Positions 12,434 to 36,719 of a stretch of DNA of 64,000 nucleotides are shown piece after piece. Each line of letters begins with the position of its first letter. Position 1 is the stretch's first letter. The stretch is from a virus. Its lineage: Duplodnaviria; Heunggongvirae; Uroviricota; Caudoviricetes. The stretch spans positions 1 through 64,000 of IMG/VR virus record IMGVR_UViG_2821091796_000001, one strand, 5' to 3'. Below the pieces are notes generated by a model, which worked only from the letters and a program-made list of their open reading frames with translations, was not told the origin of the DNA and ran no database searches. Both the position numbers and the translations under genes were made by a program.

Positions 12434-12754
12434 ATGTCGTGCAACGCGCCGAACCTGTTCAAGGAAGTAAAGAGTGAATCTCTGCCTGTGGATAAAGTGT
12501 TTGGTGAAATCAATTGTGGCATAATCATGGCACCCGATGGTTCATCAAAGGTGTTCTCCCACGGAGTAAATCAGGAAGGGTTGCTTAAGCGAGTTGAGGA
12601 CATGACCAAGGACGAGCTCGCGATCTATTGGATGGGACAGAAACTGTTCGCTTTGAACCTTGCTCTTAACAATGAGCAATTGATGGCTATTCTGCTCGAC
12701 GCAGCTACCAATCTTGAAGGTGTCAACGCGGATCCACACCATGCCATCCAATAA
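12434..12754 (+). CDS. hypothetical protein
   Basis: 106 aa ORF with SD aaggag. Confidence 0.4.
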   Translation: MSCNAPNLFKEVKSESLPVDKVFGEINCGIIMAPDGSSKVFSHGVNQEGLLKRVEDMTKDELAIYWMGQKLFALNLALNNEQLMAILLDAATNLEGVNADPHHAIQ

Positions 12755-15863: not shown

Positions 15864-15941
15864 TGCGGAGTAGAGAAGTGGTCTATCTCGTCTGGCTCAT
15901 AACCAGAAGATCGTCGGTTCGAATCCGACCTTTCGCAACCA
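15864..15941 (+). tRNA. tRNA-Met (anticodon CAT; could be Ile2/initiator type)
   Basis: hand-folded cloverleaf: acceptor tgcggag/tttcgca (2 GU pairs), D-arm gaga-agtggtcta-tctc, anticodon arm tctgg-ctCATaa-ccaga, T-arm gtcgg-ttcgaat-ccgac with one extra nt before acceptor, encoded CCA. Confidence 0.6.
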
Positions 15942-15978
15942 AATTGGCTGGCGCTGAACAGCGACGGCAACGAACTAC

Positions 15979-16054
15979 GGTGTGGTAGCGGAATGGTTAC
16001 GCAGCAGACTGCAACTCTGCATGGATGCTGGTTCGAGCCCAGCCCACACCTCCA
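15979..16054 (+). tRNA. tRNA-Cys (anticodon GCA)
   Basis: acceptor ggtgtgg/ccacacc, anticodon arm gcaga-ctGCAac-tctgc, T-arm gctgg-ttcgagc-ccagc, discriminator T, encoded CCA. Confidence 0.7.
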
Positions 16055-18000: not shown

Positions 18001-19296
18001 ATGACAAAGACTATTTCCACAATTATCGGTGGGGCGCTTCTTCTAACCAGTGTCGCTACGGCAGCTCAGGCAGGTGGCCTTGAGCGCGGTGGTTACAACT
18101 GGGATCTCCTCTTCAGTGAAGAGCGTTTTGCGACCGAGGGCGGCGTGATCTATGTAATGCCTGATCGCAAGATCAAGAATGCCAAGGATACCTCCACAAA
18201 TCCGCGCCTTGGTCAGGACAATGAGAATTACAAAAAGTCCACAGCCAGTGAAACACCAGACTACTCGGTTTATAAGTTTGGTGCCAAGGTTGGCATCACC
18301 CCGGATTTGGACTGCCTTGGCTCCTACAGCCAGCCATGGGGCGTTCACACGAAGCCAGGTGCCAATTGGGCTGGTGACAATTCGAACATTGAAACGAAGA
18401 TCAGCTCCGACGATTGGGGCCTGACGTGCTCTTACAAATTCCAAGTTACTGAAAAAGGTTCGTTCCGAGTAATCGGCGGCGTTTCCTATCAGGAAGTCGA
18501 GGGTTTCAAGACACGCATGGTCAATGGCGGCATTCCTCTTTCACCTTACGGTAAAGCGGGTTTTGACGGCACCGGTCGTCTGGAACTTAAAGGCGACGGT
18601 GTAGGTTGGCGCATCGGTGGTGCATACGAAATTCCAGAAATCGCGCTCCGTGCCAGCGTCATGTATAATGCGGCCGTGGATCTCGGAGAAGTCGGCGGAA
18701 CTCTCGACCTGAGAGAAATTCCTGGTGCGTTGGCAACTCCTTCAAACCCACTTCCTGGCCGGATTACCGACGTTTATGGCCACGCGAAAATGCCACAGTC
18801 CGTTGAAATCAAACTTCAGAGCGGTTTTGCTCCAGGTTGGCTTGCTTACGGTTCGGTTAAGTGGGTCGACTGGAGTGTGCTGGACGTTATCGCGTTTTGC
18901 CCTGTTGCAACCAAGCCCAGAGGCGGTTGTTCTGCGAGTTCTTCAAATCGTGCAACATCGCTTGACCTGATGTTCCAGGATGGCTGGACGGTAACCGCAG
19001 GCGTCGGTCACAAATTCAACGACCATTGGAGCGGTCAGCTTCAAGTTAGCTGGGACAAGGGCACCACAACGGGTTTGACCACACAGACAGACACCTATCT
19101 GCTCTCGTCCGGTATCGCGTATTCACCAAACAAGAATGTTGAAATTCGTCTTGGCGGCGCAATCGGTTGGCTCTCGTCAGGATCCTACGGCCCAACAAAG
19201 TGCACTGGCAACCAGCCATGCGGCACAGATGTGTCCTATGACTTCGGTGATGACCTCGTGACCGCCGTATCATTGTCTGGCAAGATGAAGTTCTAA
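18001..19296 (+). CDS. FadL/OMPP1/TodX-family outer-membrane beta-barrel protein
   Basis: signal peptide ending AAQA, Gly/aromatic-rich beta-strand pattern, C-terminal ...SLSGKMKF ending in Phe; SD ggggagga. Confidence 0.6.
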   Translation: MTKTISTIIGGALLLTSVATAAQAGGLERGGYNWDLLFSEERFATEGGVIYVMPDRKIKNAKDTSTNPRLGQDNENYKKSTASETPDYSVYKFGAKVGITPDLDCLGSYSQPWGVHTKPGANWAGDNSNIETKISSDDWGLTCSYKFQVTEKGSFRVIGGVSYQEVEGFKTRMVNGGIPLSPYGKAGFDGTGRLELKGDGVGWRIGGAYEIPEIALRASVMYNAAVDLGEVGGTLDLREIPGALATPSNPLPGRITDVYGHAKMPQSVEIKLQSGFAPGWLAYGSVKWVDWSVLDVIAFCPVATKPRGGCSASSSNRATSLDLMFQDGWTVTAGVGHKFNDHWSGQLQVSWDKGTTTGLTTQTDTYLLSSGIAYSPNKNVEIRLGGAIGWLSSGSYGPTKCTGNQPCGTDVSYDFGDDLVTAVSLSGKMKF

Positions 19297-19372: not shown

Positions 19373-19849
19373 TTAGGACTTGAACGGAACCTTCGCCTCA
19401 TAGAGAATTTTTCGAATGCTGGCATTCGAACAATGATGCCGATGCGCAAGCTCATCTGGGGTAAAGCCTTCCTTGGCATCAGCTATCACCGCTTCGCGGT
19501 AAATCACTCCTGATGTCGGCAAGCTGATTCCACGCTTCTCCAGGGCAGTCCGGATCGTCGCATAGTTGCGGCCGCCAAATGCAATACCGATGTCCGTAAG
19601 GCTAAGATCACGCCGCCTGGAATACACTTCCACAATCGCATCTACCCGCACTTCGGCAATATCCGCGCGTCGTTTGTGGCTTATGATATCTTCCGAAGCA
19701 AATCGATTTTTGTCCGCATGGTGATTGATAATGCTCTCGATCGAAGGGCGCTTGCTGGTGTAATCGAGCGCTTCTTTATTGACGTCGTTATTTAGTGAAT
19801 CTGCCATGGTAAAATGAATCTTCTCGTGAGCTGGATGCTGCCGAACCAA
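19373..19849 (-). CDS. DnaA domain IV-like DNA-binding protein (C-terminal domain only)
   Basis: DIISHKRRADIAEVR ... SLTDIGIAFGGRNYATIRTALEK closely parallels DnaA C-terminal DLLSKRRSRSVARPRQ ... [20 protein letters not shown]. Confidence 0.55.
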   Translation of the reverse strand: MVRQHPAHEKIHFTMADSLNNDVNKEALDYTSKRPSIESIINHHADKNRFASEDIISHKRRADIAEVRVDAIVEVYSRRRDLSLTDIGIAFGGRNYATIRTALEKRGISLPTSGVIYREAVIADAKEGFTPDELAHRHHCSNASIRKILYEAKVPFKS

Positions 19850-23132: not shown

Positions 23133-23405
23133 ATGTCCCTTGAAATCCGTAAGTTCATCACGGTCTCCACAGCTCACGTATCATTTGAGACAGCCGCGTT
23201 ATTGAACGACAACGTCAACCGTCCGTGCTTGGGCGGCACATATGGCGACTATGGCTGGTTTCTCTATGCGAGGGACGATGATCAGGGCGAAATTCCTGAT
23301 GACCTCTGGAAGGTATTTCAGTGGGTCGTGCAACAGGGTATCGATTACGTCGTTCTTGACCGCGATGCAGATCACATCGACAGCCTTCCTACCTTTGATT
23401 GGTAA
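23133..23405 (+). CDS. hypothetical protein
   Basis: 90 aa; TTGCTATAAC box upstream. Confidence 0.4.
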   Translation: MSLEIRKFITVSTAHVSFETAALLNDNVNRPCLGGTYGDYGWFLYARDDDQGEIPDDLWKVFQWVVQQGIDYVVLDRDADHIDSLPTFDW

Positions 23406-23524
23406 CACCGACTAACAAGTAAAGGCGGCTCTCACCGTCTTTTTCTTGCAGGTGAGCTCAGCCATGGACCGCCCTGCCCTCTCGTTACCAACAGCAACCA
23501 TTTGAACGCCTCGTCAAATCGTCA

Positions 23525-23562
23525 TATAACTAAAGAACGAAAAGACGAAAGCGCGAAAGAAC
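23525..23562 (+). repeat. ACGAAA tandem-hexamer element
   Basis: aagaACGAAAagACGAAAgcgCGAAAgaACGAgaac. Confidence 0.4.
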
Positions 23563-24043
23563 GAGAACAGCAAATGACCTGGAATTACATGAGAGGGTGG
23601 CTACCTCAGATCAAATGAGCCCGGCTGAAAGAAGCGCCGACACACATACGGTAATGCTGCCATTTGGAGCAAAGTCCGATAGTCGCCCATCCGTCAGGAT
23701 TATCTGGGTGAGATCTTCTCAAACGTATGCCTCACATTGTCCGGCTCGACCGGCAGCAGGTGTTGTTACGGAACTAACCCGCTTGATTGCTCACGATCCG
23801 CACCCTTCGTTGACCTGCACCTGCGGCAGGACTCAATGGGCACTGTCAACTCGGTGCGCGATCAATGAACAATCGTGAAGACAGATATAACCAGGAACGC
23901 GCTACGGCGCGTTTTCTCGTATCTGCACGCAGCCATGGCTGACCTTGGGCGAATCCCATGGCGGCCGGCGGATTAGCGATTTTGTCACTTGCATCAATTA
24001 GGCACATCATTGAATCCTAACCTCAGCTAGTGGGAGATAATCA

Positions 24044-24427
24044 ATGCCTGAGCTTACACCACCTTTCGGACTAACCCGTCTCGAAGGCGAATACATGGGC
24101 GACTTCAGTTCTCGATATGTGGAGTTCTTTAAAGAAGCTGTAGAGGACGCCCATAATCACCATGATATCGTCTCGCTCGTCTACACCGAGGATACTGCGA
24201 TGGCCCACGGCGGATCATCGCCGGATTTCTTTAACGAGAGATTCTTCGAGTTGGGTGCGCATCGCTACAACGATCCGATTTTGCTTCTGCTTGCTGACAG
24301 GGTGATCTTCCGAACCGAATATTATCCAGAGCGCGTAGTCGTAGATCGCTCAATCGGGTTCATTTCCCCTGAATTCGAGAACTTCGCCACCCGGCCCGAG
24401 GATGACTTGGAACTCTCTCAGGACTAG
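24044..24427 (+). CDS. hypothetical protein
   Basis: 127 aa. Confidence 0.4.
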   Translation: MPELTPPFGLTRLEGEYMGDFSSRYVEFFKEAVEDAHNHHDIVSLVYTEDTAMAHGGSSPDFFNERFFELGAHRYNDPILLLLADRVIFRTEYYPERVVVDRSIGFISPEFENFATRPEDDLELSQD

Positions 24428-24479: not shown

Positions 24480-24803
24480 GTGAGGCGAGTCATGATGGAC
24501 TATGCGGTAAAGGAAGTCGCCGTTGAAACAGCTCAGATTGGCCGTATGCGCGTTTTAGCGAGCGTGGGCGACTTGGCAAGGTATTTGCTGGAGGAATGGC
24601 CTGACGACGCGGGAGAGAAGCACAGGGCAGCGCGAGAAGCCTGTCTTGAAGCGCTTGCGGGCAAAATCTCTCCGGGCGTCGCGAGGATCGCATTTCTAGA
24701 GGCGGCCGAACAGGACAACGTATGGACCATGGCAACCCAGAGACCTGAATCGACCGGCAAGGTTGAGCACAGATTCAAGCGCCGTGGCGCATATCGCCGC
24801 TAA
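24480..24803 (+). CDS. hypothetical protein
   Basis: 107 aa. Confidence 0.35.
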   Translation: MRRVMMDYAVKEVAVETAQIGRMRVLASVGDLARYLLEEWPDDAGEKHRAAREACLEALAGKISPGVARIAFLEAAEQDNVWTMATQRPESTGKVEHRFKRRGAYRR

Positions 24804-25438
24804 TTCACAATCAACAGCGTGTCGTCGGGAAGCGGCTTCTGTAATTGGAGAGCCTCTTTGAAGGGTGCGGTCATCCAATGATCGACCTCCTCTGGTGTGC
24901 GCAAGATCACCGGCATTGCCTTTGGATGAATCGGCTTGACGACATTGTTTGGATCAGTCGTGAGAAAGCCAAACAGGGTGAAATCACCAGGCCCATCTTT
25001 GACGCGCCTCACGCCGGTCCACTGTGTCCACATACCGGCAAAGAAGAACAGCGGCTTGGTCTGATCCAGGGCGAAGAACACATTGGGCGTCTTTCCCGCC
25101 TCATCCTTGTAAGGGGCCGGCTCAGCAAAGCTGGTCACGGGCACGACGCACCGGTTTTCAAGCCCGTGATATTGTCTCCACCAAGGAAAATGTGAATTGC
25201 GGATATTTGACTGACCGGGATCGTAGTTCTTGCCGACCAGATGCTTAGGATCCGTGGGCAGCCCAAATTGCATAGTCGCCATCTCTCGCACACCATCGGT
25301 GCCATTACGGACGATAGGGGCAAAGGAGTTCTTGTAGACGTTGATATCGGGCTCAAGGTTGCGAGAGATATCTCGCAGAGCGCGAGTGAACAGAGTGATC
25401 TCCGCCTGATTGCTCGCCAGCTTAAAGTAGTTGCACAT
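24800..25438 (-). CDS. SRAP (SOS-response-associated peptidase, YedK/HMCES-like) abasic-site processing protein
   Basis: start MCNYF.. (Met1-Cys2 catalytic nucleophile), ~212 aa, conserved ...PIVRNGTDG ... HSHFPWW-like segments. Confidence 0.6.
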   Translation of the reverse strand: MCNYFKLASNQAEITLFTRALRDISRNLEPDINVYKNSFAPIVRNGTDGVREMATMQFGLPTDPKHLVGKNYDPGQSNIRNSHFPWWRQYHGLENRCVVPVTSFAEPAPYKDEAGKTPNVFFALDQTKPLFFFAGMWTQWTGVRRVKDGPGDFTLFGFLTTDPNNVVKPIHPKAMPVILRTPEEVDHWMTAPFKEALQLQKPLPDDTLLIVN

Positions 25439-25512
25439 CGACGTTCGCCTTCTTGACTCTTTTCCTAAATGAGAACAAATAAGGAACATATTCCGTTTTG
25501 AGCGTCAAGGAT

Positions 25513-25761
25513 ATGTCCGGACCTAAGCATTTACGCCTCGTTGCCGACGTCACCAAGTTCTCCGATTTGGACAGCTGGGAGCATCTCTATGCCTATTGCC
25601 CAGACTGTTTCAGGAAGATGCGTCTGGATAAAAATCGCCTCGGAAGAAAATATGGTTTTCACGCGAGGATCAATACGCTCAGAAAGTTCCTCGCATGCAA
25701 AAATGTGAATTGCAAAAACAAGGTGGGCAACGTGTTTGGCACCGCCAATGAGGCTCGTTAG
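25513..25761 (+). CDS. hypothetical Cys-containing small protein
   Basis: CPDC ... CKNVNC pairs. Confidence 0.3.
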   Translation: MSGPKHLRLVADVTKFSDLDSWEHLYAYCPDCFRKMRLDKNRLGRKYGFHARINTLRKFLACKNVNCKNKVGNVFGTANEAR

Positions 25762-26099
25762 GGCTTCGAACAGAATGCCTCTGTCAATGCTTTGTTGACG
25801 AGAAACCCACCAGGCTCGTGACGTTTGTCAGGATTGTTCTTCAGATACTTTGTCACAACATCCGCTACCTGCTCGCCGCTGATAGGGCTTAAAAGACACG
25901 GCTCTTTCTTTGAAAGCAAACGGATCACATCGAACGAGTCTGCAGATCCCTGCGTATAACCTAGACAGAGAATGTATTCGTCCTTCGTATTATCCTTGCA
26001 TACATTATAGAGATCGTTGCCATTATAGAAACCCGCATGTGCGGAGTTCACACTCGCAGCGCACGCAATCGCAAACAATGCAATTCTCCAGATTCTCAT
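25758..26099 (-). CDS. secreted small Cys-containing protein
   Basis: signal peptide MRIWRIALFAIACAASVNSAHA, four Cys. Confidence 0.45.
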   Translation of the reverse strand: MRIWRIALFAIACAASVNSAHAGFYNGNDLYNVCKDNTKDEYILCLGYTQGSADSFDVIRLLSKKEPCLLSPISGEQVADVVTKYLKNNPDKRHEPGGFLVNKALTEAFCSKP

Positions 26100-26141
26100 A
26101 GCCCCACCCTTCCCCAAGATTCAGTCACATTCTAGTGCAAC

Positions 26142-26483
26142 CTAAATATCAATATCATTCAGCATCAGTTCGTAGGCAGTGGAAAGACGTCTGATCGCAA
26201 GTTGAACCTCCTCCTGACCCCAGCCTGCAGCCTTCGCCTCGCTTACCAAATCGTTCCGGAGATAAGTCTCCCAGAAGATCGTCAGATCCACATTCGCAAG
26301 ATACTCGAAGAACCGCGGCTCGATCGCCTCCTCGCAATCGATGTCACGATCGGGATATGGCTCCGTTCGCTTAGGTGGCGTTACCAGAACCATATGAGCG
26401 GTCCTTCCTCCAACAGGCATTTTGTCAACATCGCGTAACATTGGGTAACGTTCTACCACACAAATGGCACGCGAAGTTGTCAA
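26142..26483 (-). CDS. hypothetical protein
   Basis: 113 aa. Confidence 0.4.
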   Translation of the reverse strand: MTTSRAICVVERYPMLRDVDKMPVGGRTAHMVLVTPPKRTEPYPDRDIDCEEAIEPRFFEYLANVDLTIFWETYLRNDLVSEAKAAGWGQEEVQLAIRRLSTAYELMLNDIDI

Positions 26484-27556
26484 AACTGTAAGCTCACCAA
26501 GTCAAAATAGGTAAATTTGATACGTGATGTTTACGTGATGTTGACAAAACCATCCCCAAAACCGGTTTTTCGGCAATCTGACAACATAGCGTAACATTTC
26601 CGGCAAGCTCTACAGAAGCTCACAGAGAGCGGCCATCAGCTAAGACGAACGAGACAACAGATCGGCAGCACGGAATACACTCAGAACTAAACCTCGAGCG
26701 AAACAGCGCAGCATACGCACCACAGAGAAAAGCTAGACCAGCGCTGCTCGGAAACATATTCGAACCAAGGCTCACTATTCGCACCAGAGCATAGAGGTCA
26801 GATATACGCATGAGCGTCTACAGAAGAGACAGAGAGGCTGCGATCAGACCTATAGAGAGCACAAAGGTCGTATAGATGCATTAGAGCAGAGAGAGGGTGG
26901 ATAGACGGCTGAAAGTGAGTGCTGAGGAACGGTTGGCGCCGCGCCATCGTTGCCTCTCACCAAACCGAACCGCCCTACCCTTCTGCCATGGCGATCCACA
27001 ACTTACCTGCACACACCATTTTCAACCCGATCGAGCCTCTGCTACAACACAGATGCAGACGTTCACTGCACACGGCGCGATTTCTTACGCGCCTCTTTCT
27101 AGTGTGTTGCATGGCACGTTGAACGCGTGCACGACTTGAGGCGGTGTCTTTGCGGATGCCGCCTCACCTTTTCGCCAGGTCGATGCCGTTTTCAGGAACC
27201 GAGCGCGTGTCTTGTCCGGAGATCCAGAAACCATGGGTTGCTCCGGAACCTTCTTTCCCTTTCACACAATTCGCCTTGCTTCGTCTATTACGTATATCTT
27301 TAGGTAGTAGAATATAGACGAACGATGGCGAAGGGAGAAAACGGGAAACCATGGACTCCGGCTCTGAACCGCGGCGTTCCAAGGTCTACCAAGGTCAACC
27401 GCGGCGGATCCCTGCGGTGCCAGTGTATTCCTTGCCGTTCCGCGTCGTCACTTGCCTATACTAGCCAGTATTATGCCAGCATTCCGTGCGATATTGTTTG
27501 AACATCGAAAGCAATCAAGCATTTCGAACAAGCAAACACACATAAGGAATACTGAC
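26484..27556. repeat. approx. 1 kb ORF-free region with short direct repeats and strand-asymmetric (T-poor) degenerate repeats; candidate origin/iteron or ncRNA region
   Basis: GTAACRTT x3, acgtgatgtt x2, TTGACAAAAC-like copies, then ~350 nt A/G/C-rich tract with spaced AGAG...GGTC/AGAC units; no ORF >=60 aa with coding character. Confidence 0.5.
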
Positions 27557-28321
27557 ATGCCCCGTAAGAATTCAAAGAATACACCCGCCGTTGAAACTGT
27601 TACTGTTGAGGAAGAGTCCGTGCTTGTGCAGGCACTTGCCGAGATCGAGTCCGATACAATCGAGGCATCGGCCGAGACCGCTGAGCCGGACGTGAAGCCC
27701 ACCTATCAGACCATTTTTGAGACCTTCGCCCAGGATGAGGCGAGCATCAACCAGACACGCATCGAGGTTGCCAATGCCTTTGATGAGCGTTCAGCCTTTC
27801 AGAAGGCGAAGAACCCGGACAATGAGAACATCCAGAAGACGCTGGCCAAGGGCCGCGCCAAGATGATCGAAGGAGCCAAGGTCGCTGGCCTGCTCTCTTC
27901 CGGCATCTCCTCAGGCTTCATCAACCGATCTGTGTCTGACGGCGAGCGCTTCAACGTCTACGCCGTCGATAAGATGATCGATATCATCAACGCACTCAAT
28001 ACCGGCTCCGAGCTGTCAAATGCCATCAACAATGCGATCTGCCGGTCGCTGTTCCGCTTCAAGAATGCCGGCGAGAAGTTCACGACGGAAATGGCGCTCG
28101 GCGCAACGTCCGACAAGATCCGCATTCAAGGCACTCTGCACAAGATGCTGGTTCGCCATACTGTCTCGGCCAACACTGCGCCGACACAGAAGTCATCCAC
28201 GATCGTCGCCCTGGAGACGCTCGGTATCATCCGCAACGCCGGCACTGGAAAAGCTGCGATCTACGAGGTGCTCGACACACCGCAGGCGCGCCGTTTGGAA
28301 GAGGTGTTGATGGCAGCATAA
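27557..28321 (+). CDS. hypothetical protein with C-terminal winged-helix-like segment (possible replication initiator/regulator; inference from context)
   Basis: 254 aa; ...LETLGIIRNAGTGKAAIYEVLD; sits directly after repeat region. Confidence 0.4.
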   Translation: MPRKNSKNTPAVETVTVEEESVLVQALAEIESDTIEASAETAEPDVKPTYQTIFETFAQDEASINQTRIEVANAFDERSAFQKAKNPDNENIQKTLAKGRAKMIEGAKVAGLLSSGISSGFINRSVSDGERFNVYAVDKMIDIINALNTGSELSNAINNAICRSLFRFKNAGEKFTTEMALGATSDKIRIQGTLHKMLVRHTVSANTAPTQKSSTIVALETLGIIRNAGTGKAAIYEVLDTPQARRLEEVLMAA

Positions 28322-28342
28322 CAGAGCAGAGCATGGAAGATT

Positions 28343-28378
28343 GATGAAGGAGACGGTTGAGGGACCGTCTCTTTTTTT
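28343..28378 (+). terminator. rho-independent terminator
   Basis: ggagacgg-ttgagggacc-gtctc followed by TTTTTTT. Confidence 0.65.
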
Positions 28379-28595
28379 CTTTGGATCAGGGCTGCCTTGG
28401 TATGCCGAGGCGGAATTAGGAACCGGTGGGCTCCATGGGAGCCGGCGTCAGGAATGGCTTGCTATTCCCTGATGATGATCCGGGAAGGCGATCCAATGCC
28501 CGGACCATGGCAAACCCGTCCCCAGGGCTGAACCGCATCGCTCTCATTGCCAGGACTTACCGTTCGATCACCTTCGTGCATTCGTTACACTCAGA

Positions 28596-28622
28596 ATAGA
28601 CGAAAACACGAAAGGACGAATT
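28596..28622 (+). repeat. ACGAAA tandem-hexamer leader element
   Basis: gACGAAAacACGAAAggACGAAttg then ATG 28625. Confidence 0.45.
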
Positions 28623-28624
28623 GA

Positions 28625-28819
28625 ATGCGCGACACCATGACAATCCGCGATTTGGAGAGGCAGTTCATGATCGACACCAGGTCCAAGACGAACCAGGCAC
28701 AGTCCAGTGAGGATGAGGCGTTCACCATCGATGGCAAGGATCTGCTCGCAGCCTTTGCCATCGCCTCCTTCATTTCCGCCGTCGCATTCATCTCCTGGAT
28801 GACCATCTACGCATTCTAG
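28625..28819 (+). CDS. small protein with C-terminal TM helix
   Basis: 64 aa; ACGAAA-repeat leader upstream. Confidence 0.4.
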   Translation: MRDTMTIRDLERQFMIDTRSKTNQAQSSEDEAFTIDGKDLLAAFAIASFISAVAFISWMTIYAF

Positions 28820-29004
28820 GCAACAAGCCAATCGCAGCGTGGGCTGCGATTGGCTTCGCACTGACCTAGCCTCGGTATGCCAAGGCACGAGGCCCCTTCC
28901 CTCTCCATGGGCTCGCCATGGCGTCAGTGCCGGTCCCTTCCCTCGTCACTTAACCTGAACAAGCCGTCCGACATCCATCAGGGCATTTGCGAATCTGTTC
29001 TTGT

Positions 29005-30406: not shown

Positions 30407-30864
30407 GATGTTTCTCTTTCTGCGTTGCTTCGAAGTCTCTTATTCGCTTCGATGATTTGACTATAAGCATTTCTCTAAGCTTGTAAAGTCACTTACTGCA
30501 AAATAGATAACTTTTCTTTCATGTGCACATTTGACTCACAGAGCGCGCTAGAGCGCGTTGACGTGTTGCTAAGTGTATGTGAACGCGAAAGAGCTAGAAC
30601 GCGCTGTGTGACGCGCTGTGTTCGAATGCGTATATGTCGCGCGAGTTATCGAGCGTGCATTGAACGAAGTCTTAGAAAATTCGCGTGGTCGCTGTATGGG
30701 ATGCCTTCTGTCGCCTGAGCACTCCGGAAACGAAGCACCTCTATTCGTGGCAGAATGGCGCTCTACGGACGATAGGACGAAGGGACGAAATAGCGAATTC
30801 GCCATTTACCGGACTCGCTGCATTTGGTAATACGCAAGTGGGGACTTGGAGGAGTTGGGGTATC

Positions 30865-31713
30865 TTGTGGCATTTCGTAGAGAATGAAGCTCCTGTCGGG
30901 CCAGTGTCCGAGCAGGAAATGATTGATCGTATTCGTGACGGCCGAATTAAACCGTCAACGCTGGTCTGGTCCGAAGGCGCTGTTGGCTGGGAACCAGCGG
31001 ATACTGTGGAAGCTTTCAACAGGGTGTTCCGCGTAACTCCGCCTCCTCTTCCCTCTGCCACAAAAGAGCCGCCTCCTGTCGTTGCATCCGCTACTGTAAA
31101 AGAAGAACCAAGAGTATCCCTTCGGCCCGAACCGCCCGTAATCGAAGTGCAGGGCTCACCATGGTCTCGCTTCGCAGCTAGAGGGCTCGACCAGGTCATA
31201 TGGTCGATTCCAATGATTTTCGTGCTGTTGATGATTGTGGCGATCACTCACAGTCAGACGTTCATCAAGCTATTGGATAATCGCGTAGCCGCGATCCTGA
31301 TGTCGCTGCCCATCTTCGGTTTGTTCAACGCGCTATCGATGTCGATATTTGGGAACACTCTCGGAAAGGCCCTTATGGGCGTAGTCGTCAAAGCCAAGGA
31401 CGGAGCCAGGGAGGGCTTTCTGTTCTATCTCATTCGCGAGCTAAATGTTCTCGTTGTTGGCTTTGGATTTGGGATTCCATTCGTTTCTCTATTCACGCAA
31501 TTGTATCAGCACAGCCAGGTGAAAACAAAAGGTCAGGCAAGCTACGATAAAGGCGTTGCTCGGGTAGAGGTATATTTCACCAGCAATGTCCGCGTGGGTG
31601 TTGTGCTTACGGCTGTCGTGCTTGCAACCGTGTATTTCAATTCACCTGCCGCGGAACCTCTCGCAATTGCGTTGGGCAAAGCCGCCGGCAGTCTGGTCGC
31701 AAGTTTTCGCTAA
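30865..31713 (+). CDS. DUF4339(GYF-like)-RDD family membrane protein
   Basis: WHFVENEAPVGPVSEQEMIDRIRDGRIKPSTLVWSEGAVGWEPA (DUF4339-like) followed by multi-TM RDD-like domain; start uncertain (TTG 30865 or GTG 30838). Confidence 0.45.
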   Translation: MWHFVENEAPVGPVSEQEMIDRIRDGRIKPSTLVWSEGAVGWEPADTVEAFNRVFRVTPPPLPSATKEPPPVVASATVKEEPRVSLRPEPPVIEVQGSPWSRFAARGLDQVIWSIPMIFVLLMIVAITHSQTFIKLLDNRVAAILMSLPIFGLFNALSMSIFGNTLGKALMGVVVKAKDGAREGFLFYLIRELNVLVVGFGFGIPFVSLFTQLYQHSQVKTKGQASYDKGVARVEVYFTSNVRVGVVLTAVVLATVYFNSPAAEPLAIALGKAAGSLVASFR

Positions 31714-31949: not shown

Positions 31950-32480
31950 TCAGACATAGGGTTTGCCCATCCAGTAATCGCGCACGATCTTGTCGGCGCG
32001 CTGCCAAAGGCCGAAATCTCCTCCCTGCAGAACAGTCAGGAGAACTTGCTTCTCGCGCATGTAGACTTTGGCAAAATCCGGGTCGTGTGCGACGATTGTG
32101 GCTGTGTTGTCGATGAGATCGCACAGCTTGATGGTCATGGCATCGTTCGAGATTGTGGCGATCCGCTCCGTCTCAAGCTTAAACCGTGTCTTCCGATTGC
32201 CAGCGCTCATGGGAACCTTGTTGGTCAGTTCATCAACCAGCTTGCAGACACGGACATCGAAATATTCGCGCAGCAGAGCCAGGGTGACGCCGGTATCCTC
32301 GACCACGTCATGCAGGTAGGCGGCGCAGAGCATGGCATCATCATAGTTCGCTGCTTGCTTAACGAGCTGCGCCACTGCGACTGGATGAACGATATAGGGT
32401 AGTCCCGTGTATTTACGGCGTTGATCGATTGCCGCATGCGCAGCATTGGCAAATAAGAGTGCATTTCCTGGAATATTCAT
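31950..32480 (-). CDS. small alarmone hydrolase (RelA/SpoT-type HD domain, (p)ppGpp hydrolase)
   Basis: AAYLHDVVEDTGVTLALLREYFDVRVCKLVDELT matches SpoT/Mesh1 HD hydrolase core; 176 aa single domain. Confidence 0.65.
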   Translation of the reverse strand: MNIPGNALLFANAAHAAIDQRRKYTGLPYIVHPVAVAQLVKQAANYDDAMLCAAYLHDVVEDTGVTLALLREYFDVRVCKLVDELTNKVPMSAGNRKTRFKLETERIATISNDAMTIKLCDLIDNTATIVAHDPDFAKVYMREKQVLLTVLQGGDFGLWQRADKIVRDYWMGKPYV

Positions 32481-34191: not shown

Positions 34192-35610
34192 CTAAGCAGC
34201 GAGCTCCTCCTTCAGACGCTTCTCGGTGCGAGCACGCAGCTCAGAAAGGGAGGTTAGTGCTTCGAGATTTCCCTTCGAGTAGACCACTTTGAGCAGATTG
34301 TCTTGCAGTTCGACCTGATCTTCAGCCAGTGTTACGACCGGATAATCAATGAGCCTTGTCGCGCAGACTGCAAGACGACCCGCCTTTGACGCCTTCGTCG
34401 GATCTGTCGCCGGCCGCTTCTGAACCGGAACCCATTCGCCATTGTCGATCTGAATTGCATTTGCCTTCATAGCAAAGCGCAGGTCATCGCGCATGACGCC
34501 CTGGAGAAGTCCGCCTCCCATGCCAACAGCGATATTGTCAGCCGACCAGCCTTCAAGCAGAAGGGTGCAAAAGAGTCGGTCGATCTTCTCGAGGTCCATG
34601 CCGTCGCCCTGGATGACGCGCACCTTTGGGTTCAACACCTTGTAGCCTTTCGAATTGATCGTCCCGCCGAACTTTTCCCAAAGCGCGTGAAGGACATCAA
34701 GAGGAGTCGTTACCGGATCACCGCTATCAGGACGAACAACCAGCGTTCCGCCCATCTTGAGCACTTTTTCCTTCAATTCGCCGCCCCAGACGTTCTCGAC
34801 TGCATTCATGAGGTCGTAGCTGTCAGAAACGACCGCAACGATACCAGACCCGAACTGATCGATCATATTGCTGTAGGCATCGGCCTCGCGATCCTTGCCC
34901 CAAGAAGTGATGGTCGAATGTTCCGCGGCTGGGATTGAGAAAGCTGGCATCTCGTTGGCGCCATAGTATCGACGGGCAAATTCCAGCGCTTCCATCGTGT
35001 CAGTTCCTTTGAAATTGACCAGATGCGCGAACCCGCCAAGTGCTGCACTTTCGCTCGAAGAAACGCCCCTTGCGCCGAAATCATGCAGTTTGAAGGGTAT
35101 CTGACCATCCGGATCTTCGGAGCTTTGCAGAAGCGCCCTATAGATGATCTTTTTCACATGGTAAGAAAGCGTTGCGACAGTCGAGGGATACCAAATTGCG
35201 CGGAGCAGGGCGGTTTCGATGAAGGTCGAGAGCCAGGGAAGACGCGGATCCAGATTGCGCACCTGCACAAGCGGCGTTCCCAGCGGAACGACGGATCCTT
35301 CGGCAAGCGCCTGAATTTCGATCGGCAATCGGCCGTTATGCTCGAGCCGGATAATATCCCATCCTTCACGATTGAACGGCAGGCCATGCTCCTTGCAGAC
35401 CAGTTCGGCCTCATCGACATCAAGGCTGTCGATCTTCTCTGTGAGATACTGCTTGATGAACGCCTGCAGACCAACAAAAACGACCTCTTTGAAAATCCCG
35501 CCGGCGCGTGCTTCGACATAGGCCGAAACAGCGGTCGTCTGGGGCGGATATTGAAGGAAGTGAGACTGTTTGTAGCTATCGGTAGCAAGAATAAGATTGC
35601 GGAAAGACAT
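34192..35610 (-). CDS. nadV: nicotinamide phosphoribosyltransferase (NadV/Nampt)
   Basis: 472 aa; N-terminal ILATDSYKQSHF and overall Nampt-family layout. Confidence 0.8.
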   Translation of the reverse strand: MSFRNLILATDSYKQSHFLQYPPQTTAVSAYVEARAGGIFKEVVFVGLQAFIKQYLTEKIDSLDVDEAELVCKEHGLPFNREGWDIIRLEHNGRLPIEIQALAEGSVVPLGTPLVQVRNLDPRLPWLSTFIETALLRAIWYPSTVATLSYHVKKIIYRALLQSSEDPDGQIPFKLHDFGARGVSSSESAALGGFAHLVNFKGTDTMEALEFARRYYGANEMPAFSIPAAEHSTITSWGKDREADAYSNMIDQFGSGIVAVVSDSYDLMNAVENVWGGELKEKVLKMGGTLVVRPDSGDPVTTPLDVLHALWEKFGGTINSKGYKVLNPKVRVIQGDGMDLEKIDRLFCTLLLEGWSADNIAVGMGGGLLQGVMRDDLRFAMKANAIQIDNGEWVPVQKRPATDPTKASKAGRLAVCATRLIDYPVVTLAEDQVELQDNLLKVVYSKGNLEALTSLSELRARTEKRLKEELAA

Positions 35611-35660
35611 CGTGAACTCCTCACGTTTGAATTTTGATGGAACAGCGGACTCCCCGCTGC

Positions 35661-36719
35661 TTAGAAACCGATCATCTTCTGCAAGATTGACCAGTGATCC
35701 TCGAAGAACACCTGTGGCTCGAGGTCGCCAAGACGATACCAGTCGGCATGTTCGGCATCGTCGGAGCCCTTCACTGTGAAAAGCTCCTTTGAATCGGGTA
35801 GAACGAACCGATAGGCTGTTGTCACAATCCTACCGCGCAGTGAGCGCTTGGGGTGATCGAACAATTCGCTTCCGGTGATGAAGGATGCGAGCATCGAGGG
35901 CGGGATTTCGCCCTTTCTGTCAGAGATTTTGGTCTCTTCCTTCAGTTCACGCACCGAAGCATCGCGGATCTGCTCGTTCTCGTTGACGAAGCCGCCGGGA
36001 AGAGCGAGCAGGCCGTGACCGTATTCCTTGCCGCGACGGATCAACAGCACATGACCGGATTGTGTGACACAGGCGTCGGCCGTCAGGAACGGGCCTTTGC
36101 CATAGGTCTTGCGATAGTCGATCAGATATTGCTGCTCATACACGCGCCTCTTGAACTCTTCGGTGAGCATGTATTCTTCCAGAAAACCCGCCACCTGGTC
36201 ATCAAGACCGCGTGTAGGGATCAAGGGAAGGGGTTGAAAGTAGGCAGCACGAATGTTCGACGCATTGAATGTGCCGAACTGACTGCCGATCTGGATCGAC
36301 TCCCACTCAGGAAAGCGTTTCAGATAAAAGCCGGTAGCGTCCTTCCCGAAGCCGGCAAGAGCGACCTTGAAGTCATTGATGCCTGAAGTGTGGAAACCGT
36401 GATTGTTTCCGTATTCAAGAATGATATCGGTAATCGTGCGCTGCACGCTCGCGATCCAGGCACTATCATTGTAGAGATTATCTTCCAGCGGCTCAACGAT
36501 GAGACGTTCAGTTGCCATTTCGTGGCGAAAGACACGATGGATCATCTCCTTGCGTTCCTCGAAAGTGAACGGGTTGGCGAAGTCCCTGGCGATGTTGGAA
36601 GATCCGATCAGCACGATCACTCGCTCAGCCTGTTTTAAAGCTTCACGAATGACGTGCTGATGACCGATATGCAGTGGTTGAAATCTGCCGATGAATACGG
36701 CGAAGTGATACTTAGACAC
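35661..36719 (-). CDS. nadM: bifunctional NMN adenylyltransferase / Nudix hydrolase (NadM-Nudix)
   Basis: FIGRFQPLHIGH (H/T-x-G-H nucleotidyltransferase motif) N-terminal; C-terminal Nudix box GGFVNENEQIRDASVRELKEETKI. Confidence 0.8.
   Translation of the reverse strand: MSKYHFAVFIGRFQPLHIGHQHVIREALKQAERVIVLIGSSNIARDFANPFTFEERKEMIHRVFRHEMATERLIVEPLEDNLYNDSAWIASVQRTITDIILEYGNNHGFHTSGINDFKVALAGFGKDATGFYLKRFPEWESIQIGSQFGTFNASNIRAAYFQPLPLIPTRGLDDQVAGFLEEYMLTEEFKRRVYEQQYLIDYRKTYGKGPFLTADACVTQSGHVLLIRRGKEYGHGLLALPGGFVNENEQIRDASVRELKEETKISDRKGEIPPSMLASFITGSELFDHPKRSLRGRIVTTAYRFVLPDSKELFTVKGSDDAEHADWYRLGDLEPQVFFEDHWSILQKMIGF

Follow-up and report, generated by a model that had tools for sequence, protein, structure and literature searches.

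The subject of this study is a stretch of DNA that separates two genes (positions 26484-27556), together with the gene that follows it (27557-28321), in 64 kb of a virus assigned to the Caudoviricetes (IMG/VR record IMGVR_UViG_2821091796_000001, positions 1 to 64,000). The whole of this 64-kb sequence, which amounts to 128 kb when both strands are taken together, is referred to below as the window. An earlier inspection of the letters alone (the sequence-only reading) saw in the gap a candidate iteron-type replication origin of a phage-plasmid, with the product of the adjoining gene as the initiator protein, and named a long non-coding RNA as the alternative. As argued here, comparison with related elements favours the RNA.

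The window codes for terminase, portal, scaffold and tape-measure proteins, an rIIB-like protein and RtcB, as well as for NAD-salvage enzymes, a helicase, and ParA and ParB-like proteins. The 254-aa product of the gene at 27557-28321 is 100% identical to a protein encoded on a 118-kb contig of Phyllobacterium myrsinacearum. Its homologues occur on contigs of 110-122 kb, among them those of the Rhizobium phages RHEph10, B1VFA, V1VFA-S, RHph_X66 and RHph_N1_10 and circular plasmids of Sinorhizobium (pLM21S1), Shinella, Rhizobium, Pararhizobium and Methylobacterium. Judged by its sequence, the window belongs to the RHEph10/pLM21S1 group of rhizobial phage-plasmids. Members of this group carry a RepC-like replication system plus parA and parB (PMC4447125, PMC5537653, PMC12509600), and B1VFA and V1VFA-S possess terminal repeats of 3.6-3.9 kb (PMC12509600). 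The phage-plasmid setting proposed in the sequence-only reading was borne out, since relatives live as plasmids (PMC4447125), which they propagate using a RepC-type initiator (PMC4447125, PMC12509600).

The reported lack of any convincing open reading frame (ORF) in 26484-27556 was confirmed: the ORFs present there are short, none exceeding 80 aa, and no relative of any of them occurs in approximately 70 related loci. An unannotated gap of 1.2-1.4 kb also precedes the homologous gene in pLM21S1 and V1VFA-S, and a similar one is found in RHEph10. Two ORFs annotated within such gaps, RHEph10_gp141 (1676-2239 of locus L069) and EVC19_009 of RHph_Y2_11 (1649-2167 of locus L071), encode products of 172-187 aa rich in R, C, S and P. 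Their reading frames fall apart into different frames in close relatives, and both are probably mis-annotations lying over the RNA and the promoter module described below. In the circular record of the Shinella plasmid NZ_CP132310.1 the homologous gene lies at 112-774 and the record opens approximately 100 nt before it, so that the non-coding region is split across the record ends.

A blastn comparison of the window region with all loci returned just one match, of 100 nt, in the 5' untranslated region. Since nucleotide similarity between the window and its relatives is almost nil, the window was compared with them by structure and motifs. Despite this divergence, the order of elements is the same in the window and in relatives: lineage-specific short boxes are followed by the arrangement TTGACA-N18-20-TTTTYCGGCAA, a tract with AYAGAGAG motifs, the island GCCGCGCC with a C-rich tract, hairpins with a terminator, an AT-rich core placed in an inverted repeat amid CCNNGG boxes, and finally the winged-helix gene. 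The RNA unit and this gene are adjacent and co-oriented in every case examined.

The evidence that carries the RNA comes from these relatives. A seed covariance model was made from two nearly identical sequences of a Rhizobium subfamily and a hand-drawn structure; in this subfamily three hairpins (P1, P2 and P3) precede the terminator, and P2 is linked to P3 by a conserved single-stranded joiner, CUUUCGUAGUUGCUGAUG. The seed model found 13 copies and the rebuilt model 15 (E < 0.01), all of them on the + strand and upstream of a homologous winged-helix gene. In the alignment of the 15 copies, 94.1% of cells hold standard pairs, compared with 65% in shuffles and 34-47% in slid controls, and 32 of the 33 pairs show changes on both sides (compensated); the alignment was fitted to the model, so these figures lean towards structure. 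The terminator helix (helix 4) covaries as well, with all 12 of its pairs compensated. A further helix, absent from the model, joins the loops of P1 and P3; it is 96% paired, has three compensated pairs, and is represented by seven different complementary loop pairs (e.g. CACCCGG/UCGGGUG, CGUCCGG/CCGGACG, AGGCGG/CCGCCU and GAUGUG/CACAUC). The + polarity of the RNA is fixed by its G-U pairs, which would be A-C mismatches on the other strand. RNAalifold run on ungapped, anchor-centred segments gave no consensus. In two loci (L016, 5236-5407; L032, 5127-5294) P3 carries an insertion of 50-70 nt, an extra domain, and complementarity between the P1 and P3 loops is not detectable there.

When the window and 10 relatives were compared with Rfam 15, nothing but tRNAs reached the gathering score, and an E-value scan of 26300-27700 gave chance-level matches only. 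The literature that we found on this phage-plasmid group makes no mention of such an RNA. The RNA represents a new family without an Rfam 15 match; its general kind, that of phage- or plasmid-borne regulatory or large structured RNAs, is familiar, and its two-part build is unusual.

The window contains a divergent copy of this structure, in which the loops of P1 and P3 are complementary over 6 bp (CGUUCA/UGAACG). With the model designated R2 and filters switched off, the best match within 25000-29000 was a full-length one at 27045-27173 (+ strand, 9.8 bits, E 0.008); the version without the terminator (R3) revealed no new family members. The terminator of this copy was missed by a consensus scan because its T run is short (4 T). 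A structural descriptor combining P1, P2, GTTGC, P3, a loop complementarity of at least 6 bp and the terminator had a single match in both strands of the window, at the 3' domain. When it was applied to 936 kb of related loci, nine matches fell at the expected place and two more were true copies offset by guessed gene starts, while approximately 12 lay elsewhere, i.e. about one false match per 78 kb. It is probable, if not proven, that the divergent copy of the window belongs to the new RNA family. The long non-coding RNA that the sequence-only reading had kept as an alternative is therefore supported by a covarying + strand structure with an intrinsic terminator in relatives, and by the divergent copy in the window.

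Upstream of the hairpins lies an A/G-rich tract, which would form the 5' domain of the RNA. Its description as almost devoid of T was overstated: T makes up 13% of 26600-26900, compared with a window mean of 22.5% (sd 3.6; z ~ -2.7), which is the second lowest value among 300-nt segments. The repeat unit proposed for it, AGAG-N8-10-GGTC/AGAC, holds in its AGAG part, but the GGTC/AGAC half is not evident in the logo. The motifs of the tract follow the consensus A-Y-AGAG-A-G; they are spaced irregularly (mode 14-18 nt), without helical periodicity, and Tandem Repeats Finder, one of the checks suggested earlier, found no array there. The window as a whole contains the exact form RYAGAGAG as often as expected (8 copies in either case), but four of the eight lie within this 270-nt stretch. 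Most of the 40 loci compared for this feature contain 6-14 copies of AYAGAGAG per 350 nt, against a background of approximately 0.8 (~10-fold); these copies are mostly on the + strand, in a T-poor tract approximately 1 kb upstream of the gene. Structure prediction leaves the 5' tract less paired than the remaining RNA (0.45 vs 0.39, p 5e-6). The C-rich, G-poor tract that follows is a possible candidate for a Rho loading site.

Some RNA-based systems of other kinds were set aside. A ToxIN-like type III toxin-antitoxin module, in which exact tandem repeats of ~34-36 nt specify the antitoxin RNA ahead of a terminator and an endoribonuclease toxin gene, was rejected on account of the missing tandem array, the irregular motif spacing, the lack of a toxin family match for the winged-helix protein and the 385 nt that separate the terminator from the gene. 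A template of a diversity-generating retroelement or retron was also dismissed, as no reverse transcriptase was present among the proteins scanned, no dedicated search having been made.

At its upstream end the unit is preceded by four copies of a 17-bp operator-like box, TGWCAACATNGCGTAAC. A scan for this box gave five matches in the window (0.54 expected), of which four are those described here and the other one is weak. The four form two inverted pairs, whose members are 43-49 bp apart, and not a phased direct array. The short repeats recorded in the sequence-only reading are thus real, all being pieces of this one box, but they are not phased direct iterons. In relatives, the corresponding position is occupied by other boxes, each specific to its lineage, e.g. 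GACCTTTACA in loci L001 and L002. The third box of the window includes the TTGACA of a promoter-like element, whose arrangement (TTGACA-N18-20-TTTTYCGGCAA) is also found in L001, L027, L029, L031 and L039. These features suggest that transcription of the RNA may start here under the control of a repressor. The leftward ORF 26142-26483, which diverges from the RNA unit, has weak PHROG matches only and is not conserved at this position in L001 and L002; the first operator-like boxes (26423-26482) fall inside its longest frame, so its true start is probably located further downstream.

We therefore interpret the gap, with a probability of about 0.6, as the operator-controlled transcription unit of a non-coding RNA of approximately 575-590 nt (~26590-27172, + strand), followed by the winged-helix gene with its own regulated promoter, and not as a replication origin. 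According to the mechanism that we propose, a phage or plasmid repressor would control the promoter whose TTGACA lies in the lineage-specific 17-bp box. The transcript would open with a U-depleted, weakly structured A/G-rich domain bearing approximately 9-14 AYAGAGAG motifs, pass through the GCCGCGCC island and then the C-rich tract, and close with the three hairpins, the P1-P3 loop-loop pseudoknot and the intrinsic terminator, which would give it a defined, protected 3' end. Through its repeated single-stranded motif the transcript might titrate an RNA-binding protein, or else base-pair with pyrimidine-rich targets, in the decision between the lysogenic (plasmid) and the lytic state. That the RNA is a stable, trans-acting molecule which titrates an RNA-binding factor or pairs with such targets is put forward tentatively. 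The winged-helix protein, in turn, would bind phased CCNNGG/CCATGG boxes flanking its own AT-rich promoter core, and other intergenic sites.

Several points weigh against this interpretation. Transcription, the position of the 5' end and the stability of the RNA are all things that we infer. The R2 score of the window copy is weak (9.8 bits) and is partly carried by the terminator; the terminator-less R3 misses this copy and seven other divergent loci, even with filters off; and the structural descriptor was composed after the sequence of the window had been seen. For the segment 26590-27180 (591 nt) the gain in folding over shuffled sequences is only marginal (z -1.5). A canonical -10 sequence is missing from the promoter-like element, which a sigma-70 scan did not call. 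The predicted exposure of the AYAGAGAG motifs does not exceed that of other purines, so that the idea of a sponge gains no specific support from it. A central hairpin around GCCGCGCC was dropped as a specific helix, its flanks pairing no better than composition-matched shuffles; it is accounted for by composition alone, one arm being purine-rich and the other pyrimidine-rich. Finally, a long covarying inverted repeat, an AT-rich core and phased boxes beside a gene for a DNA-binding protein also resemble some replication origins.

The constant adjacency and co-orientation of the RNA unit and the gene could also mean that the RNA is a cis-acting leader, i.e. the 5' part of the winged-helix mRNA, in which the kissing hairpins, the terminator and a Rho entry site in the C-rich tract would form an attenuator setting the level of read-through into 27557-28321, much as in the RNA-controlled anti-repressor operons of P1, P4 and N15. 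The position of the structured domain directly before the terminator, the C-rich, G-poor tract upstream of it, and the overlap of operator-like boxes with the promoter would all suit such a device. However, inspection by eye revealed no alternative pairing that competes with the terminator stem, and the ~385 nt between the terminator and the start codon include the AT-rich, promoter-like core and a sigma-70-like match. Nor is it obvious what an attenuator would need 300 nt of repeats for, and we consider a leader unlikely.

The second part of the locus is the winged-helix gene and the DNA module in front of it. Fold searches confirmed that the protein ends in a winged helix, and the gene is followed by a terminator, both as stated in the sequence-only reading. 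The 254-aa protein has no sequence match in Pfam, PHROG or the PDB, and in the proposed check against protein families it matched no Rep family. The folds recovered were generic C-terminal winged helices (AF1382, Scc1/ScpA, Fur/PerR, ArsR/SmtB), with weaker matches to TubR (Foldseek probability 0.47-0.66) and to the winged-helix domain of Cdc6/ORC. Two unnamed phage proteins in BFVD match the whole fold; Foldseek against the PDB gave nothing at E <= 0.001, and no Rep protein of an iteron plasmid (e.g. RepE, pi) was among the fold matches listed. A profile search of 1.8 billion representatives yielded homologues of the same architecture only, without informative fusions, and the family comprises approximately 400 cluster representatives at 50% identity. 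The recognition helix is nearly invariant (T207, T210, Q211, S214) across homologues that are ~40% identical, which fits an invariant target, such as the CCNNGG/CCATGG boxes, and not the lineage-specific 17-bp boxes. Most likely, the winged-helix protein binds the 10-bp-phased CCNNGG/CCATGG boxes, which would make it an autoregulated transcription factor of this part of the genome.

These boxes surround an AT-rich core within an inverted repeat (Table 1). The segment 27369-27404 holds the sole run of at least three phased CCNNGG boxes in the window, compared with 0.04 expected. Across loci, the CCNNGG spacings have peaks at 10 bp (79 cases), 20 bp (45) and 30 bp (18), and 11 bp accounts for 27 cases. 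In most loci the AT-rich core (GC 14-31%) is located 200-360 nt upstream of the start codon; the inverted-repeat arms around it reach 23-25 perfect bp and differ between loci. In relatives the core reads, by eye, as a TTAYGT-N17-TATAAT/TATATA promoter aimed at the gene. Approximately 15 relatives have phased CCNNGG runs just downstream of the gene as well (+1000 to +1250, counted from the gene start). The window holds 23 copies of CCATGG where 13.5 would be expected; they are concentrated between genes, at 23.4-24.0 kb and at 27.0-28.9 kb, and many of them directly follow a terminator. CCATGG or CCTTGG boxes, often 10-12 bp apart, were noted at 23405-24044, 28376-28624 and 28888-28950 of the window, and at ~8710 and ~10207 of L001. 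The overall distribution of CCATGG/CCNNGG looks like that of operators of a regulator acting at several promoters, i.e. a one-protein regulon.

Table 1. Coordinates of the features of the RNA and winged-helix locus in the window.
Feature	Position	Strand	Remarks
Four 17-bp operator-like boxes TGWCAACATNGCGTAAC	26423-26439, 26466-26482, 26530-26546, 26579-26595	+, -, -, +	between the leftward gene 26142-26483 (-) and the RNA unit
Promoter-like element (putative)	26541-26580	+	TTGACA 26541-26546, 19 nt, then TTTTTCGGCAATCTG 26566-26580
RNA 5' domain	26600-26900	+	A 35.5%, G 26.6%, C 24.9%, T 13%; ~9 AYAGAGAG-type motifs
Conserved island ACATATTCG	26754-26762	+	within the 5' tract, in the window and relatives
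Conserved island GCCGCGCC	26938-26945	+	left flank purine-rich, right flank pyrimidine-rich; window and ~15 loci
C-rich, G-poor tract	26950-27045	+	CACCTCCCaCCCC-type equivalents in relatives
P1	27054-58/27066-70	+	loop ACGUUCA
P2	27074-79/27088-93	+	hairpin of the 3' domain
Joiner UCUUUCUAGUGUGUUGCAUG	27094-27113	+	single-stranded, between P2 and P3
P3	27114-18/27126-30	+	loop UUGAACG
Intrinsic terminator of the RNA	27138-27172	+	stem GAGGCGG.../...GCCGCCUC (27138-27165), then ACC UUUU
CCATGG boxes	27231, 27349		part of the module 27231-27404
Imperfect inverted repeat, 35 nt	27254-27288/27314-27348		surrounds the AT-rich core
AT-rich core TTACGTATATCTTTAGGTAGTAGAA	27289-27313		inside the inverted repeat
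Four CCNNGG boxes, exactly 10 bp apart	27369, 27379, 27389, 27399		part of the module 27231-27404
Sigma-70-like promoter TCGTCA-18-TATTAT	27445-27474	+	83 nt before the start codon; a match to the consensus only (3 such matches in the region, 1.7 expected)
Gene of the 254-aa protein	27557-28321	+	variable acidic N-terminus, helical domain, C-terminal winged helix
Terminator of the winged-helix gene	28346-28385	+	13-pair stem, then T run
CCATGG boxes of the next intergenic region	28433, 28505 (28433-28510)		box scan

In another reading, the same module would be the heart of a lytic or secondary origin, in which the AT-rich core 27289-27313 would serve as the unwinding element, the winged-helix protein as a new initiator acting on the CCNNGG boxes, and the purine-rich transcript would prime or activate replication via an R-loop, as happens at the ColE1, T7 and T4 origins. 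The core flanked by perfect arms of up to 23-25 bp that differ between loci, and the 10-bp-phased boxes on both of its sides, repeated downstream of the gene in ~15 relatives, recall the incC-repA-incA region of P1. The RNA is 62% purine and U-poor, and purine-rich, U-poor RNA favours stable RNA:DNA hybrids. Furthermore, no annotated lytic-phase initiator besides RepC was seen in pLM21S1. More generally, a DNA-binding gene bracketed by phased boxes, with an AT-rich core and an upstream purine-rich transcript, is reminiscent of incC-repA-incA of P1 and F, ColE1 RNA II, and the T7 and T4 oriF origins. On the other hand, the protein is not of the Rep_3/RepA type and has no Rep-like fold, and the boxes are 6 bp long with a 10-bp period, occur at several promoters and, as CCATGG, are found again in several further intergenic regions. 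An intrinsic terminator stops the RNA ~115 nt short of the core, and the elaborate, covarying 3' domain is unlike a primer. The core can also be read as a promoter.

Nor did box clusters or skew mark the locus as a replication origin. The AT-rich core is present, but there is no cluster of DnaA boxes (a single match with one mismatch, at 26992, is at chance level); CtrA boxes are lacking, the scan for them being at chance level. Cumulative GC skew, which the sequence-only reading had recommended as a check, gave no origin signal: in the complete pLM21S1 it falls monotonically with gene orientation, without an inflection at the locus. The skew of the window likewise tracks the orientation of the genes, and neither of the two is informative about this site. 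In repABC plasmids oriV lies within repC (Pfam PF03428 and PF11800). In pLM21S1 repC is situated ~64 kb from the homologous locus on a circle of 117.5 kb, about half a genome away, and many of the 110-120 kb contigs with a gene for the winged-helix protein also encode a short RepC protein; the plasmid origin is therefore expected outside the region studied here. None of the proteins of the 118,187-bp Phyllobacterium contig is among the 120 RepC matches listed, and the window lacks counterparts of the pLM21S1 proteins RepC (by tblastn), DnaB-like helicase, primase and DnaE. All things considered, we hold a lytic or secondary origin to be quite unlikely, and equally doubtful, if not slightly more so, a transcription-dependent origin of a new type, separate from the RepC origin, at which the operator-controlled RNA and a new winged-helix initiator would cause melting or R-loop formation.

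The plasmid-type iteron origin of the sequence-only reading, with the repeats of 26484-26900 as iterons and the 254-aa protein as Rep, fares worse. Origins of this class have several direct repeats of 17-22 bp, all in one orientation, with a phasing of ~22 bp, and a Rep protein with two winged-helix domains (Pfam Rep_3 or a relative). Here, repeats do adjoin a winged-helix gene in a family that lives as plasmids (PMC4447125). However, we found no initiator of a Rep family and no 17-22 bp direct repeats at ~22 bp phasing, the only phased elements being the 6-bp CCNNGG boxes (10 bp); the AGAG motifs are irregular and strand-specific, in a T-poor strand, and the 17-bp boxes are inverted pairs. 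As RepC, located elsewhere, is the plasmid initiator of the family, and as neither a DnaA/CtrA cluster nor a skew signal was seen, such an origin is highly improbable and already largely refuted.

Phased arrays on both sides of a promoter-like core, just upstream of a gene for a DNA-binding protein, are also known from plasmid partition. The arrays could constitute a centromere-like, autoregulatory site on which the winged-helix protein would act as partition adaptor, together with the ParA encoded 5 kb away. In R1 parC/ParR and in TubR/tubC, two sets of helically phased short repeats lie on either side of a core promoter that precedes the gene of the binding protein; in the parC/ParR type, the operon encodes the adaptor and its NTPase. 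TubR, to which there are weak Foldseek matches, is also a winged-helix protein. In contrast to these systems, no NTPase gene adjoins the winged-helix gene, the fold match to TubR is weak, and the boxes are scattered over several intergenic regions and not confined to one centromere. ParA has a small neighbour of its own: of the ParA/ParG-like pair noted earlier ~5 kb away, ParA was confirmed, but the small neighbour is only weakly ribbon-helix-helix-like. A centromere would, moreover, explain only 27231-27404 and not the RNA, and we judge it very unlikely.

Returning to the non-coding RNA, its likeness to several known classes is partial. Immunity RNAs of ~70-100 nt, processed from a leader, are produced by P1/P7 (c4), P4 (CI) and N15 (CA). 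The locus described here shares with them a repressor-controlled promoter (as proposed above), an RNA with complementary loops, a terminator, a downstream regulatory gene and residence in a temperate, plasmid-living element. It differs in that the RNA measures ~580 nt and includes 300 nt of repeats, both complementary loops belong to one molecule, and the downstream protein, which is without a Pfam/PHROG family, is not recognisable as an anti-repressor. CsrB/RsmZ carry GGA motifs, and CrcZ carries A-rich motifs for Hfq/Crc. Like these RNAs, the transcript would be several hundred nt long, with many degenerate purine-rich motifs irregularly spaced on one strand and an intrinsic terminator; unlike in CsrB and CrcZ, the motifs are not predicted to lie in loops or to be specially exposed, and there is no Rfam sequence or structure match. 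AYAGAGAG is not known as a CsrA or Hfq site. With GOLLD and ROOL the RNA has in common its size class, its presence in phages or prophages, nearby tRNA genes (in relatives), loop-loop complementarity and an unassigned function, but here a covarying fold is defined for the 3' ~130 nt only, the 5' half is weakly structured, and no Rfam match exists.

The surroundings of the locus vary between lineages. Genes for tRNA-Met (CAT) and tRNA-Cys (GCA) are located at 15864-16054 of the window, whereas relatives have instead Met, Asn and pseudo-tRNA genes 3-4 kb downstream of the winged-helix gene. Just left of the RNA locus, at 24800-26117 (-), are genes for a SOS-response-associated peptidase (SRAP) and a Rap1a-like type VI immunity protein; a Rap1a/Tai gene occupies the equivalent relative position in a Pararhizobium plasmid (L072). 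Further to the right lie genes for a GYF_2+RDD membrane protein (30685-31713, +) and an HD phosphohydrolase (31950-32480, -), and the NAMPT plus NadM/NUDIX NAD-salvage pair (34192-36719, -). In pLM21S1 the NAD genes are on the opposite side of the winged-helix locus, which indicates that the region has been rearranged between lineages. An unusual cargo for a phage-like element is a 431-aa outer-membrane beta-barrel of the FadL/TodX type encoded at 18001-19296 (+; Pfam Toluene_X, E 3e-17). Away from the RNA locus there is a perfect intergenic DnaA box, TTATCCACA (12487-12495), and a gene (19373-19849, -) for a 158-aa protein with a domain resembling the C-terminal helix-turn-helix of DnaA (Pfam Bac_DnaA_C, E 1.9e-7, just under the cut-off).

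Phage-plasmids are increasingly regarded as drivers of gene flow. In the rhizobial RHEph10/pLM21S1 group, most genes lack annotation and, as far as we are aware, no control circuit has been described. Here we describe an RNA that shows strong covariation in relatives, has a fixed place beside a widespread, uncharacterised winged-helix family and is absent from Rfam 15. We provide a seed alignment for the new RNA family, and annotations that call spurious ORFs in the gap are corrected. The RNA is a concrete candidate for a lysogeny or plasmid-maintenance switch of the RHEph10/pLM21S1 elements. Should it prove to titrate a host factor or to have a part in replication, this would constitute a new mechanism in agriculturally relevant rhizobia.

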